From an uncultured Clostridia bacterium (GTDB taxonomy: Bacteria > Bacillota > Clostridia > Christensenellales > CALMFG01), in the NCBI GenBank assembly GCA_937863465.1, contig CALMFG010000188.1, positions 1 to 43,255 of the forward strand: a stretch of DNA of 43,255 nucleotides, read 5' to 3'. Shown here one piece after another: positions 38,161-43,255 of the stretch; position 1 is the stretch's first letter, and every line of letters starts with the position of its first letter. The notes under the pieces are model-generated. The model searched no databases. It had not been told where the DNA came from and worked only from the letters and a program-made list of their open reading frames with translations. Both the position numbers and the translations under genes were made by a program.

Positions 38161-38832
38161 TTGGGGAAATTGACCATTGCGCTGGACGGTCCGGCAGGTT
38201 CGGGGAAATCCAGCGTCGCCAAGCAGATTGCAAAAACACTGGGTATTCTTTACTTGGATACCGGCGCCATGTACCGCGCTGTCGGGTATGATATACTAAA
38301 AAAGGGCATCGATCCGCTGGACAGAGAACGGGTTGAAAGTGCGATGAAAGACATCGATGTTTTAATCCGCTTTATCGACGGCCAGCAGCAGGTGTGGGTA
38401 AACGGGGAGGACGTGACGGGAAAAATCCGTACGCCCGAAATCTCCAAAGCTGCGTCGGACGTGTCGGCGCATCCGGCCGTACGCATGGCTATGGTCGAGC
38501 TACAGCGCGAAACCAGCGAGCAGTACGACATGATACTGGACGGAAGAGACATTGGCACATTTGTTCTGCCAAACGCCGAGTTTAAGTTCTATCTGGTTGC
38601 TTCGTGCGAGGAGCGGGCCAGAAGGCGGCATAAAGAGCTGGCCGAGCGCGGGATAGATCGTCCGCTTTCCGAAATTCAGCGTGAGATGGAACAACGGGAT
38701 TACAACGATTCACACCGTGCGCTGGCGCCTTTAAAACAGGCCGAGGACGCCGTCCTGATCGATTCGACGGCGATGACGATTGATGAAGTGGCCAGACAGA
38801 TTATAGACACAATCAAGGGGGAAGTGAAATGA
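38161..38832 (+). CDS. cmk: Cytidylate kinase
   Basis: DGPAGSGKS, LDTGAMYR and DGRDIGT motifs; TTG start after AGAGGG. Confidence 0.96.
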   Translation: MGKLTIALDGPAGSGKSSVAKQIAKTLGILYLDTGAMYRAVGYDILKKGIDPLDRERVESAMKDIDVLIRFIDGQQQVWVNGEDVTGKIRTPEISKAASDVSAHPAVRMAMVELQRETSEQYDMILDGRDIGTFVLPNAEFKFYLVASCEERARRRHKELAERGIDRPLSEIQREMEQRDYNDSHRALAPLKQAEDAVLIDSTAMTIDEVARQIIDTIKGEVK

Positions 38833-39419
38833 ATGCGTTATACTGGGTGGCAAAACATATTGCGGCGGTGCTCAACCGATGCGTTTTCTTCTTACGCGTG
38901 AAGGGCAGAGAAAACACAGACAACAAGGGACGCGTGATGATTATTTCCAATCACGTTTCATGGTTTGACCCTGTCATGCTGGGCGGATTATTTAAACGCA
39001 AGATTCACTATATCGCCAAAGCCGAATTATTCAAAAGCAAGGTGTCGGCTTACCTGTTGTCCCGACTGGGCGCTTTTCCGGTGGCCAGAGGGCAGGGGGA
39101 TTACGGCGCGATTAAGAAGTCTTTCGAGATTTTGAAAGAAGACAAGTGCCTCGGTATTTTCCCCGAAGGCACGCGATACGAAAAAGGCGAGATGGGCGAG
39201 TTCCAGCGCGGTGCGGCGGCGATTGCATTGCAGATGGATGCCAAGATTATACCGGTCTATTTCATGGGTGAGTTTAAAGCCTTCCGTCAGATCAAGGTCA
39301 TCATCGGCAAAGCGTTTTCTTTAAAGGATATGCTGAACCCCAAGGACAAGACCGCGGTGGATGAAGGCACACGGATTTTAAAAGATACACTGCTCCGGCT
39401 GAAACAGGAGCTGGGCTGA
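38829..39419 (+). CDS. plsC: 1-acyl-sn-glycerol-3-phosphate acyltransferase
   Basis: NHVSWFD and FPEGTR motifs. Confidence 0.9.
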   Translation: MNALYWVAKHIAAVLNRCVFFLRVKGRENTDNKGRVMIISNHVSWFDPVMLGGLFKRKIHYIAKAELFKSKVSAYLLSRLGAFPVARGQGDYGAIKKSFEILKEDKCLGIFPEGTRYEKGEMGEFQRGAAAIALQMDAKIIPVYFMGEFKAFRQIKVIIGKAFSLKDMLNPKDKTAVDEGTRILKDTLLRLKQELG

Positions 39420-39432
39420 CAGGGAGAAAAAA

Positions 39433-41612
39433 TTGCAGGTTATTGTAGCCAAACAGGCGGGCTTCTGCTTCGGCGTCAGATCCACGAAGACCGCCGCGTA
39501 ATCTGCCTCCGCGTCAAGCGCGCCGTGGATGCCGTATATAAGAATATTGAGGCGTATAAGCATGTCTACACCTTTGGCCCGCTGATTCATAATCAGGCGG
39601 TTGTCCAGCGGCTGATGGAAGCTGGTGCGCCGTACGTGGACAGCTTGGACGAAATCACCGAGACCGAGAATGTGGCGGTCATCATCCGTTCGCACGGCGT
39701 AGCGCCTGAGGTACTCGCGTCCATCAAAGCCCGGGGCTTTGACATTATCGACGCCACCTGCCCCTTTGTGACGCGCATCCAGCGCAAAGCGCAGGACGCC
39801 AGCGCTGCCGATCGGTATGTCATCATCGTCGGGAAAGCCGACCATCCTGAAGTGGTGGGGATTTCGGGCTGGGCAAACGGACAGGCCTTTGTGGTGGACA
39901 GCGTAGCGGGTGTACGCGAATTGCCCGCGCTTAAAAATCCGCTGGTGGTGGCGCAGACCACCATCGAATCGACGATGTGGGAACAGGTGACCGAAGAGAT
40001 TATGCAACATTTCCCCGATGCCGAACTGTTCATGAGCATTTGTGAGACCACATGCCAACGGCAGACCGAAGCCGAGGAACTGGCGAAAAAGGCCGACCAT
40101 ATTCTGGTGGTCGGCGGAAAAAAAAGTTCCAACACGCAAAAACTCTACAATATTTGTTCAAAATACTGTAAAAGCGTACAGTTAATTGAGGATTCTAACG
40201 AACTATCTCTTGAAAAAATAAAACTTGATGATATAATAGGAGTTGTCGCCGGTGCTTCAACACCCGACTGGATGATTATGGAGGTAAAGAAAAGGATGAG
40301 TGAAGTGGAAAAGACGCCAATCGCGGCCGAGGAAGCGGTTGCGGGCGCTGAGGAGAGCGTCGTAGGCGTTGAGCAGACGGACGAGGTTTCTGCGGCTGAA
40401 AAGGAAGTGAAAACGAGCCAGGTAGAAACAAAATCCGCCGTGACAGACGAGGAAGACTTTCTTGCACAACTGAATGAAACATTCAAAACGATTAGAAAAG
40501 GGCAGATGATTACCGGTACCGTGGTACAGGTGACGGATGACGATGTTTCATTGAACATCGCGTACAAATCCGATGGTCTGATTTCCCGGAGCGAACTGCC
40601 GATTGAATCCGGCCAATCCGCCAAAGATGTCTATCATGTGGGCGATGAGCTGGAAGCTCAGGTCTTAAGCATGAATGACGGCGAAGGCAGAGTGAAACTC
40701 AGCCTGAAACGCATGCAGGACAAGGTCAAATGGCAGGAATTCTTGGATACGCACGAAGAAGATAAAGTGTATGACGCCAAGATTTTAAAAGCGGTTAAAG
40801 GCGGCGTAATTGCCAAAGTGAACGGCTATGAAGCCTTTATTCCGGTGTCTCATTTATCCTTAAAATATATTGAAGATGTGAAAGATTTCGTCGGAAAAGA
40901 TGTTAAAGTCAACATCATTGACGTCAATAAAGAAAAAAGAAGACTGGTTGCGTCTTTAAAGAATTTATTGTTAAAAGATGCGAAAGCGAAAAAGCTGGAG
41001 ATGATTGAGACCTTCGACAAGGGACAGAAGATCGTCGGTAAAGTTAAAAAACTGACCGATTTTGGTGCCTTTGTGGACGTTGGCGGCGTGGACGGATTAC
41101 TGCACGTGGCGGACATCTCCTGGAATAAAGTGAAACATCCTTCGGACGTTTTGGAAGAAGGACAGGAAATTGAAGTGCTGGTGCTGAACACAGACCCCAA
41201 AAAGAAACGCATCTCTTTGGGATTAAAGCAGCTGCAGTCCAAGCCCTGGGATGCGGCGGCCGAGAAGTATCTGGTCGGTTCCACCATTAAAGGCAAGGTG
41301 GTTCGCATCACCGACTTCGGCGCATTCATCACTCTGGAACCGGGCATTGACGGCCTTGTTCATATCTCTCAGGTTTCCAATCGCCGCGTTGAACGCGTTG
41401 AGGAAGTCCTGAAACTCGGTCAGGAGATCGAGGCAAAAGTGATGGAAGTCAAGCCGACCGAGCGTAAGATTTCCCTTTCGATCCGGGAACTCATGGAACC
41501 CGAAGTGAAGGAAGAGAAGCCCAAACGCGAAAAGGTTGAACGTGTGGTCATCCCGCCCGTTCAGGAAGCCACCGTCACCTTGGCGGATTTCTTCCCCAAG
41601 GAAGACGAATAA
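39433..41612 (+). CDS. ispH: IspH (HMBPP reductase)-ribosomal protein S1 fusion, interrupted after codon 15 by a 38-bp frameshifting insertion
   Basis: GGGAG RBS 39422-39426; TTG 39433 reads MQVIVAKQAGFCFGV, and KRAVDAVY resumes at 39516 in another frame. LIHN, RSHG, DATCP, HPEV, SICETT, SSN and AGASTP motifs follow, then four S1 repeats. Confidence 0.92.
39473..39516. other. 32-bp insert (39479-39510) flanked by 6-bp direct repeat GCGTCA
   Basis: GCGTCA at 39473-39478 and 39511-39516; deleting 38 bp restores the canonical IspH N-terminus and the reading frame. Confidence 0.92.
40210..40237 (+). promoter_or_regulatory. Putative intragenic sigma-A promoter for stand-alone S1
   Basis: TTGAAA-16 bp-TATAAT with extended TG, in a strongly AT-rich patch of the ispH CDS. 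Confidence 0.65.
40296..41612 (+). CDS. rpsA: Ribosomal protein S1 moiety, probably also translated separately from an internal start (438 aa)
   Basis: GGAGGT at 40280-40285 and in-frame ATG 40296 at the domain boundary; S1 repeats such as FGAFVDVGGVDGLLHVADISW. Confidence 0.65.
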   Translation: MSEVEKTPIAAEEAVAGAEESVVGVEQTDEVSAAEKEVKTSQVETKSAVTDEEDFLAQLNETFKTIRKGQMITGTVVQVTDDDVSLNIAYKSDGLISRSELPIESGQSAKDVYHVGDELEAQVLSMNDGEGRVKLSLKRMQDKVKWQEFLDTHEEDKVYDAKILKAVKGGVIAKVNGYEAFIPVSHLSLKYIEDVKDFVGKDVKVNIIDVNKEKRRLVASLKNLLLKDAKAKKLEMIETFDKGQKIVGKVKKLTDFGAFVDVGGVDGLLHVADISWNKVKHPSDVLEEGQEIEVLVLNTDPKKKRISLGLKQLQSKPWDAAAEKYLVGSTIKGKVVRITDFGAFITLEPGIDGLVHISQVSNRRVERVEEVLKLGQEIEAKVMEVKPTERKISLSIRELMEPEVKEEKPKREKVERVVIPPVQEATVTLADFFPKEDE

Positions 41613-41744: not shown

Positions 41745-43255
41745 TTGCTGAAAGCGCTGTTCAAAAACAGAATCACCGATTTTAGGCCATGGGTTTTTAT
41801 CGCGCTCTATATGACGCTGGGCATTCTATCTGGCTATTATTCCGAGCAGAGCATGGTTTACGTCTATGTTTTTGGCGGCGTCGCGGCATTACTCGCTCTG
41901 CTGGACGGCATTAAAAACAAAGACGTCGCGTTTTTGGTGTTGTACTTCATCAGCTTTGCAGGCGGGATGATTCTGATGAACCTCACGCTGGACAGTGAGC
42001 CGCTGCCGTACGGCGAAACCAAAGTGACCGGACGCGTGACCAACGCCGTGCATTATGATACCAGGTCCTATTATATTCTGGATGAATGGACATTTGAGTA
42101 TAACGGAGAAACGGTCTCGCCTTACAAGGAATTACGGATTGCAACAGAGGCCAGAGATTTGGAGCCCGGCGATAGGATCGCTTTTTCGGCGACGCTGACT
42201 CTGCCCGATGTTCGGCGTAATATCGGCGGATTTGACGAACGGATATATTTGCTTGGCAAGGGCGTGGGGTATACAGCCAAGGGCACAGTGGAAGATATTA
42301 CTTTTATCGACCATACAACTACCGTTCAAAGTCTGCTCTCCGAGGTCAGCACGTATTTTAAGCGCACCATCGAAGCGATATTCCCCGACAGCACGGCGGG
42401 TATCGCCAAGGGCTTGGTGCTCGGCGATAAATCCGACATATCCGAAGCAGATTACGCCATATTTCAGCGCGGCGGCACGGCGAGTATTCTGGCGGTTTCT
42501 GGCCTGCATTTTGGTGTGCTTTCGCTTTTTGTCTTTTGGCTGATGAGTATTCTGGGAGTGGGGCGAAAACCCGCCCATGTCATCACGGCGGTGTTTATGC
42601 TGGCCTATGCCGGAATCGTTGGATTCACCATTTCGGCCACACGTGCGCTCATCATGGGCCTGGCTGTGGTTTTTGCCAGCCTGCTTGGAAAGAAAAAGGA
42701 CACACTCTCATATTTAGCCGCCGCTTATGTCATTTCTCTGACTATTTTGCCCGCTTCGCTGTTCTCGGCGGGCTTTATGTTGTCCTTCGGCGCGGTGTTC
42801 GCCCTGTTGGCGCTGACGCCGATTCTTGAAAAACCGCTGAAAAAGATACCCCGGCGCGTTTCGGGCCTGGTCACCGCACCCGTCGCCGCTACCATCGGCA
42901 CAGCCCCCTTCATCGTCAATTTTTTTTACTATTTTTCAGTCGTGGGTATCCTCGCCAACATCGTGGTCATCCCCATCGGCTCGCTGGCCGTGGTGACCAC
43001 GTTTATCGCGGCGATTCTGGGCAGAATTCTGGGTGTGCCGTTTGCGTGGGCTTCGGACAAGCTCATATGGCTGATGCAGACCATCACGGGCAAGCTGACC
43101 GCACTGCCGTTTGCGACGGTGGATATTCCGGCTTTGCCCGCCGGCTTCATCATCCTCTGGTTTGCCGCCATTTTTGTCGTCTCCGGCTATTGCCTGTTTA
43201 AACCCTGGCTGAAGCGAACGGCGGCAGCGATACTGGTCGTCGGCATGGCGGCCAT
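41745..43255 (+). CDS. comEC: ComEC/Rec2 competence protein (runs off the window; missing from the ORF track)
   Basis: TTG 41745 after GAGG; hand translation gives RNIGGFD, GLVLGDKS, ILAVSGLHFG, SATRALIM and GFMLSFGA, and the frame is still open at the window end. Confidence 0.9.
   Translation, partial: MLKALFKNRITDFRPWVFIALYMTLGILSGYYSEQSMVYVYVFGGVAALLALLDGIKNKDVAFLVLYFISFAGGMILMNLTLDSEPLPYGETKVTGRVTNAVHYDTRSYYILDEWTFEYNGETVSPYKELRIATEARDLEPGDRIAFSATLTLPDVRRNIGGFDERIYLLGKGVGYTAKGTVEDITFIDHTTTVQSLLSEVSTYFKRTIEAIFPDSTAGIAKGLVLGDKSDISEADYAIFQRGGTASILAVSGLHFGVLSLFVFWLMSILGVGRKPAHVITAVFMLAYAGIVGFTISATRALIMGLAVVFASLLGKKKDTLSYLAAAYVISLTILPASLFSAGFMLSFGAVFALLALTPILEKPLKKIPRRVSGLVTAPVAATIGTAPFIVNFFYYFSVVGILANIVVIPIGSLAVVTTFIAAILGRILGVPFAWASDKLIWLMQTITGKLTALPFATVDIPALPAGFIILWFAAIFVVSGYCLFKPWLKRTAAAILVVGMAA

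Follow-up and report, generated by a model that had tools for sequence, protein, structure and literature searches.

A 38-nucleotide microhomology-flanked insert, probably a one-off lesion, interrupts the fused ispH-rpsA gene in the assembled genome of an uncultured Clostridia bacterium

The 43,255-nucleotide window analysed here is the whole of contig CALMFG010000188.1 from the genome assembly of an uncultured Clostridia bacterium of the Christensenellales (GCA_937863465.1, here G000; 209 contigs, 2.17 Mb, 51% G+C, rated 97% complete). It carries a fused ispH-rpsA gene that is broken as assembled by 38 extra nucleotides following its fifteenth codon. In all probability the insert is a one-off, non-programmed and microhomology-flanked lesion in an ordinary bifunctional ispH-rpsA gene. 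No other assembly or sample examined shares the insert, and the working allele of the species is the insert-less form which is found in other samples. The elements of the interrupted gene are the following.

39422 to 39426, forward strand: Shine-Dalgarno-like GGGAG, 6 nucleotides ahead of the native TTG, by direct reading; GGAG also stands ahead of the TTG in the congeners G001 and G003.
39433 to 39477, forward strand: native TTG start and first 15 ispH codons, MQVIVAKQAGFCFGV, with the conserved Cys encoded by TGC at 39466-39468; the orthologues of G001 and G003 share all 15 residues.
39464 to 39478, forward strand: native copy of a 15-nucleotide repeat, TCTGCTTCGGCGTCA, from the repeat search.
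39473 to 39510, forward strand: the 38 nucleotides absent from other samples, placed by contig joints and by blastn against G001; the exact 6-mer lets the placement slide by 6 nucleotides, up to 39479-39516.
39479 to 39501, forward strand: 23 nucleotides of unrelated sequence whose final three bases are the in-frame stop TAA at 39499-39501, by direct reading and repeat search.
39502 to 39516, forward strand: second, imperfect repeat copy, TCTGCCTCCGCGTCA, from the repeat search; it ends on the first base of Lys-16, from which the native frame continues.
39516 to 41612, forward strand: remainder of the fused ispH-rpsA gene, from KRAVDAVY to the stop, with a Pfam LYTB match of 265 bits and four S1 stretches.

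The TTG at 39433 opens a reading frame of only 22 amino acids, MQVIVAKQAGFCFGVRSTKTAA, in which RSTKTAA follows the conserved N-terminus, and KRAVDAVY begins at 39516 in a different frame. The open reading frame (ORF) listing instead holds a 695-amino acid ORF that starts from a GTG at 39525 and matches PF02401 (LYTB) over profile positions 18-266 of 267 and then PF00575 in the four S1 stretches. The TAA severs the 15 codons of the Cys motif from this larger ORF, so that the N-terminal GFCxGV motif, the cysteine of which is a cluster ligand, sits in the separate 22-amino acid ORF at 39433-39501. A single uninterrupted frame of about 700-720 amino acids is not found in the gene as assembled, and inspection by eye reveals no Shine-Dalgarno-like motif ahead of the GTG at 39525. 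When the 38 nucleotides are removed, a reading of 2142 nucleotides is obtained which encodes 713 amino acids with zero internal stops and begins with a TTG start that is retained in congeners G001 and G003. A preliminary description of this stretch had reported the 22-amino acid ORF, its stop and the resumption of the frame at 39516 with coordinates that are all correct, and it was likewise right that removal of 38 base pairs restores an intact 713-amino acid fusion and that the GTG start lacks both a ribosome binding site (by eye) and the Cys motif.

The preliminary description also proposed that the insertion is flanked by a 6-bp duplication. An exact pair of GCGTCA hexamers is indeed present at 39473-39478 and 39511-39516 with a 32-mer (39479-39510) in between, but this is not the full extent of the similarity. 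The repeat search aligns TCTGCTTCGGCGTCA (39464-39478) with TCTGCCTCCGCGTCA (39502-39516) at a spacing of 38 nucleotides and with 13 matches over 15 bases, and the seven matches among the nine positions outside the exact hexamer have a chance probability of about 0.001 (binomial, p = 0.25 per base). Because the repeat extends to 15 nucleotides, the insert is better described as 23 unrelated nucleotides plus a flawed 15-nucleotide copy of the native stretch coding for the Cys motif. Target duplications made by transposase-type enzymes are exact, and a joint of partial homology would rather be the trace of template switching or of a mis-join; the imperfect repeat thus points to microhomology joining over a clean target-site duplication. 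What looks like a precise insertion with target duplication may prove to be a microhomology joint once the repeat is searched for. A perfect inverted repeat of 7 nucleotides (ATCCACG / CGTGGAT) is formed between the start of the insert at 39480-39486 and native sequence at 39524-39530, 8 nucleotides past the joint; by a rough estimate it could be due to chance, or else be a trace of strand switching when the insert arose.

Public sequencing runs show the site in other samples. Nine runs hold parts of positions 39000-40000; none of them contains half or more of the sampled words, none is recorded as RNA, and four were compared. One 214-nucleotide contig from a freshwater run (X1) joins 39472 to 39511 and thus skips the 38 nucleotides with no other letters changed, and one 251-nucleotide contig from a wastewater run (X4) makes the same joint with six other letters. 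The two runs come from different studies, the joint is ambiguous by 6 nucleotides in both, and the insert is absent from both of the two foreign contigs that cross the site.

The same picture emerges from the relatives. G001 and G003 align without interruption across the site, where the gap falls at 39473-39510 in the blastn comparison with G001, and AGFCFGVKRAV is read in G001, G002 and G003, so that all three congeners lack the insert. The G001 ORF has a length of 713 amino acids. Among the 120 best homologues listed, GFCxG[VI]x[RNK]A is uninterrupted in 119, with the Cys at residue 8-22, and the sole exception is missing its N-terminus altogether. The exact 695-amino acid product is recorded from a single contig, which is the window's own. 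The closest full-length relatives among the matches listed are 713 and 711 amino acids long and 86-87% identical, which implies that the homologue collection holds no conspecific protein. The 90%-identity cluster of the 695-amino acid product (P0001) is represented by a 54-amino acid partial hypothetical protein of 'Pantoea sp.', an odd match that seems to be a quirk of the clustering.

A number of the homologues listed, some from Christensenella among them, are named bifunctional 4-hydroxy-3-methylbut-2-enyl diphosphate reductase / 30S ribosomal protein S1 by NCBI, and the ispH-rpsA fusion is therefore a known family in which the insert is a singleton. Like other members of this family the gene encodes LYTB followed by four S1 stretches, its joined reading amounts to 713 amino acids, and its TTG start and N-terminal motif are those of the congeners; it differs in that its ORF is broken after codon 15, whereas 119 of the 120 listed homologues are uninterrupted. 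The intact congener protein matches solved structures of both IspH and S1. A literature search on ispH-rpsA fusions returned no paper that dealt with the fusion, as judged by title and abstract. The genome contains one LYTB match and an intact GcpE, and HMG-CoA reductase was not found in it, so that neither the second ispH nor the mevalonate route that the preliminary description had suggested looking for came to light. For these reasons IspH is probably indispensable in this organism. A fixed null allele of ispH would be surprising, which leaves an artefact, a minority or dead-end variant taken up by the assembler, or a reading in which the interrupted gene is rescued. As it stands, the annotated genome appears to be without a functional IspH and could be misread as having a broken methylerythritol phosphate (MEP) pathway with no mevalonate marker found. 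The main value of the observation lies in quality control, since the other samples indicate that the species normally carries an intact gene.

Two scans against 2.27 Mb of congener G001 (2106 crude ORFs) looked for further lesions of the same kind. In the protein scan, 1450 of the 2106 crude ORFs had a match of at least 50% identity in G000. A total of 47 pairs of high-scoring segments (HSPs) suggested split genes, and in 20 of them, from 15 query ORFs, the junction was not bridged by an open frame; junction alignments were inspected for 15 of the 47 candidates. Ten of the 15 ORFs without an open frame were sent to Pfam, which recognised a family in one (4HBT_2). The remaining five were excluded, four being antisense-looking or having an intergenic junction beside a gene start or end and one consisting of three tiny HSPs. 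The protein scan does not detect breaks closer than about 25 residues to a gene end and so overlooked ispH, which was later found by a nucleotide gap scan. The latter aligned 1.58 Mb of the 2.17-Mb G000 to G001 and yielded 5396 gaps with extra sequence in G000, the largest of which is the ispH insert (38 nucleotides, followed by 26, 24, 23 and 22). Among 40 gaps of at least 10 nucleotides whose length is not a multiple of three, a direct repeat longer than 3 nucleotides flanks the ispH insert alone. On the contig of the window itself, no further gene appears in the list of genes split relative to G001, and the ispH insert stands alone among such gaps, an indirect check on the statement in the preliminary description that no other gene of the window is broken. 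The search for other repeat-flanked frameshifting inserts that the preliminary description had called for thus gave no second case in the 1.58 Mb aligned. Since neither scan gave a like case, there appears to be no family of inserts comparable to the bypassed byp elements of yeast mitochondria, and no systematic assembly damage.

Side observations from these scans concern other genes. The only other broken gene with Pfam support that these scans brought up in G000 is the 4HBT_2 thioesterase gene, which lies outside the window on the minus strand of another contig (C40:2194-2202). Its two halves are 82% and 75% identical to G001 and lie in different frames, and at the break G001 reads GATCGCCGCCGGCATT where G000 has an A-run containing TAA and one extra base. 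Conversely, G001 is frameshifted in conserved genes through which G000 reads without interruption, for example near C6:246123-247091 and C3:340415-341332; from our own reading of the translations, one of these genes is rpoC-like and one NuoF-like, and some other split candidates are intergenic. G001 is therefore no error-free reference.

The source of the 23 unrelated nucleotides was sought in several collections. A 70-nucleotide stretch containing the insert has no better match elsewhere in its own genome than 14 nucleotides, the exact 32-mer has no match in the collections genome_contigs, viral_contigs and metagenome_contigs, the 32-mer is absent from all 40 relatives when up to three mismatches are allowed, and blastn of a 44-mer against plasmid and phage collections returned rows at chance level (best E value 0.6). 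A second copy, which the preliminary description had proposed to look for, was not found in the genome, the 40 relatives or the three public collections. A 22-mer core of the insert has one match in genome_contigs, in a metagenome-assembled genome (MAG) of the Opitutaceae, and none in metagenome_contigs. The identity spans 23 nucleotides (39481-39503), from the third base of the insert to 2 nucleotides past its unrelated part, and falls into a gene with DHH and DHHA1 domains; translated from its minus strand, the insert gives EADYAAVFVD against DDYAAVFVD in the Opitutaceae gene. By our own arithmetic about 0.07 matches of an exact 22-mer are expected by chance in 596 Gb, and the Opitutaceae match is therefore a lead and no finding. 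Should the donor truly be a gene of another organism, a chimera made outside the cell would become more likely. The insert sequence occurs in none of the three DHH genes of the genome itself, and a six-frame scan of the genome for motifs resembling DYAAVFVD found the insert itself and one unrelated place. One of the three DHH-domain genes (open frame of 802 amino acids) happens to lie on the same contig at 32742-33173, 6 kb upstream of ispH, and likewise does not contain the insert sequence.

It is proposed that the lesion arose by two switches or joins. The first would leave ispH at GCGTCA, where a short homology may have sufficed, and would lead into the 23 nucleotides of unrelated filler that follow codon 15; the second would return through the 15-nucleotide look-alike (13 of 15 bases), after which the gene continues unchanged. 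This could have taken place in the tube or in the assembler, which would make the insert a chimeric molecule or a product of mis-joined contig ends, or it could have been a single template-switch mutation in a cell of the sampled population. An artefact of the former kind is slightly favoured over a real one-off null allele. Both the captured fragment with recent loss of ispH and the assembly artefact which the preliminary description had listed among its alternatives fit these data, and the mobile-element footprint that it had coupled with the former fits them poorly, the repeat being imperfect. From what is generally known of microhomology-mediated template-switch insertions and of metagenome chimeras, the case resembles them in its unrelated filler, its short and partly imperfect homology (6 exact; 13 of 15) and its being a singleton absent elsewhere. 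Its donor, by contrast, is at best a candidate, the Opitutaceae gene. No in-cell machinery came to light, as neither Ku nor Cas1 was found in the genome, which is rated 97% complete.

A number of observations weigh against a one-off lesion or blunt the choice between its two settings. Positions 39476-39509 are covered by no contig of the four runs compared, and none of the nine runs was made from the source sample, so that artefact and real allele both stay candidates. A De Bruijn assembly needs reads that contain the novel sequence and usually keeps the better-covered path, which would argue for a real variant that is not rare, and such a variant would be odd for the sole and probably essential ispH. 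The genome is otherwise clean, with one other Pfam-supported split gene in about 1450 comparisons, and the assembly shows no sign of general sloppiness. The donor lead, too, is weak, as the Opitutaceae match ends after 23 nucleotides and about 0.07 such matches are expected by chance.

Extra DNA that is flanked by a direct repeat could also be what a mobile element left behind, as a footprint or a miniature copy whose target-site duplication would be the repeat, or an ectopic spacer of the CRISPR (clustered regularly interspaced short palindromic repeats) type, for which 32 nucleotides is a common length. Both forms of this explanation are very unlikely. The repeat is imperfect over 15 nucleotides and offers no clean target duplication, the insert has no terminal inverted repeats (the sole inverted pair that touches it is the 7-nucleotide one with downstream native sequence), and it has no other copy in the genome, the 40 relatives or the three collections. 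Cas1-Cas2 integration would be expected to duplicate a stretch of repeat length, whereas the exact duplication here is just 6 nucleotides, and Cas1 (PF01867) was not found in the genome rated 97% complete. The preliminary description had placed a removable or bypassed element at the head of its list, and this is not supported by the private nature of the insert, the lack of a second copy, the fold or the codon following the putative take-off site. In a programmed hop, the peptidyl-tRNA-Val would leave GUC at 39475-39477, skip 38 nucleotides, re-pair with GUC at 39513-39515 and resume at AAG 39516 to yield the 713-amino acid protein. Such a hop is extremely unlikely, even though take-off and landing codons are matched, the frame-0 stop lies seven codons past take-off, the predicted fold includes a small hairpin containing GUC, and ispH-rpsA is single-copy and probably essential. 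The matched GTC codons at 39475-39477 and 39513-39515 are a trivial product of the 6-nucleotide repeat, because any 6-nucleotide duplication yields them. The predicted fold of the 71-nucleotide RNA reaches -21.4 kcal/mol, compared with an average of -22.6 for shuffled sequences (z +0.42), of which 129 in 200 are at least equally stable. The end of the gap, GUAAUCUGCCUCCGC, is without GAG or GGAGG, and its last 19 nucleotides are about 68% G+C, so that there is no Shine-Dalgarno-like motif with AU-rich flanks. The insert is absent from all relatives examined and from the other samples of the same species, with no second case in the aligned genome, and no slippery heptamer for -1 frameshifting is seen by eye at GGC GUC AGA.

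Known bypass systems offer a measure for this comparison. In the preprint by Manning and Atkins, 81 byp inserts of 27-55 nucleotides are described from 12 of 15 genes of Magnusiomyces capitatus mitochondria, the bypass cassette of T4 gene 60 is described with its 50-nucleotide coding gap and the MobA element, and a hungry codon is exemplified by one that makes up 0.08% of codons (bioRxiv 10.1101/2022.08.31.505936). The A-site codon AGA in ispH is neither a stop nor hungry by comparison, since it accounts for 0.485% of codons (4.85 per 1000 in ORFs of at least 300 amino acids) and 10.9% of Arg codons. Measured against the two systems as described there, the gap in ispH resembles that of gene 60 in being short, non-coding and intragenic, with identical bounding codons and a stop soon after the first of them. 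Unlike in gene 60, the codon that follows take-off is neither a stop nor hungry, the predicted hairpin is not conserved in relatives, the gap lacks a Shine-Dalgarno motif, and the nascent chain has 15 residues at take-off whereas the gene 60 signal lies in a longer chain. Nor is the gap located in a phage topoisomerase gene or next to a homing endonuclease, and the insert is not conserved in relatives. With the byps it shares the size of 38 nucleotides, which falls within their range, and the matched flanking codons. It differs in that there is one case in a 2.17-Mb genome (1.58 Mb aligned) with no second repeat-flanked insert of a length not divisible by three, and in that its 3' part is G+C-rich, the gene is bacterial and cytoplasmic, and an insert-less allele is circulating.

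A leaky rescue by near-cognate initiation in the frame of the 695-amino acid ORF, with ATT at 39432 as the candidate start, would produce a full-length protein with a replaced N-terminus and is just as improbable as the hop. This frame is open back to 39420, which gives 730 amino acids, and ATT 39432 lies 5 nucleotides after GGGAG and 1 nucleotide before the native TTG, which it overlaps by two bases, and would share the same Shine-Dalgarno sequence. In this frame the flawed repeat copy reads VICLRV ahead of KRAV, with a Cys that lines up with the native one, and C25, V28 and A31 occupy invariant columns of alignment A1, which comprises 41 sequences. However, the alignment puts the Cys in an invariant column by construction, and its register is explained by the 15-nucleotide repeat, so that selection is not needed. 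No ATG, GTG or TTG is present in this frame between 39420 and 39524, where possible starts are near-cognate only. In an AlphaFold2 model of the other-frame reading, residues 1-18 have a pLDDT (predicted local distance difference test) below 50, the means of 10-residue blocks are 42 for residues 11-20 and 65 for residues 21-30, and no strand precedes the helix at 26-38. That the insert-plus allele is real and dominant, with IspH still made either by the GUC 39475 to 39513 hop or by initiation at AUU 39432, is highly unlikely overall. If it held, recoding would be keeping a natural gene on a bacterial chromosome alive after an insertion of filler DNA, which would be a rare example in bacteria of chromosomal translational bypass or of N-terminus replacement.

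The ispH-rpsA gene is preceded by cmk and a PlsC-like acyltransferase gene and followed by comEC. These neighbours are the following.

38161 to 38832, forward strand: cmk (cytidylate kinase), upstream and intact, with a Pfam Cytidylate_kin match of 246.6 bits.
38829 to 39419, forward strand: PlsC-like acyltransferase gene, upstream and intact, with a Pfam Acyltransferase match of 97.5 bits.
41745 to 43253, forward strand: ComEC-like competence gene, downstream and truncated by the contig end, with a Pfam Competence match of 189 bits and DUF4131.

The stop of the acyltransferase gene, TGA at 39417-39419, shares its frame with the downstream piece of ispH.

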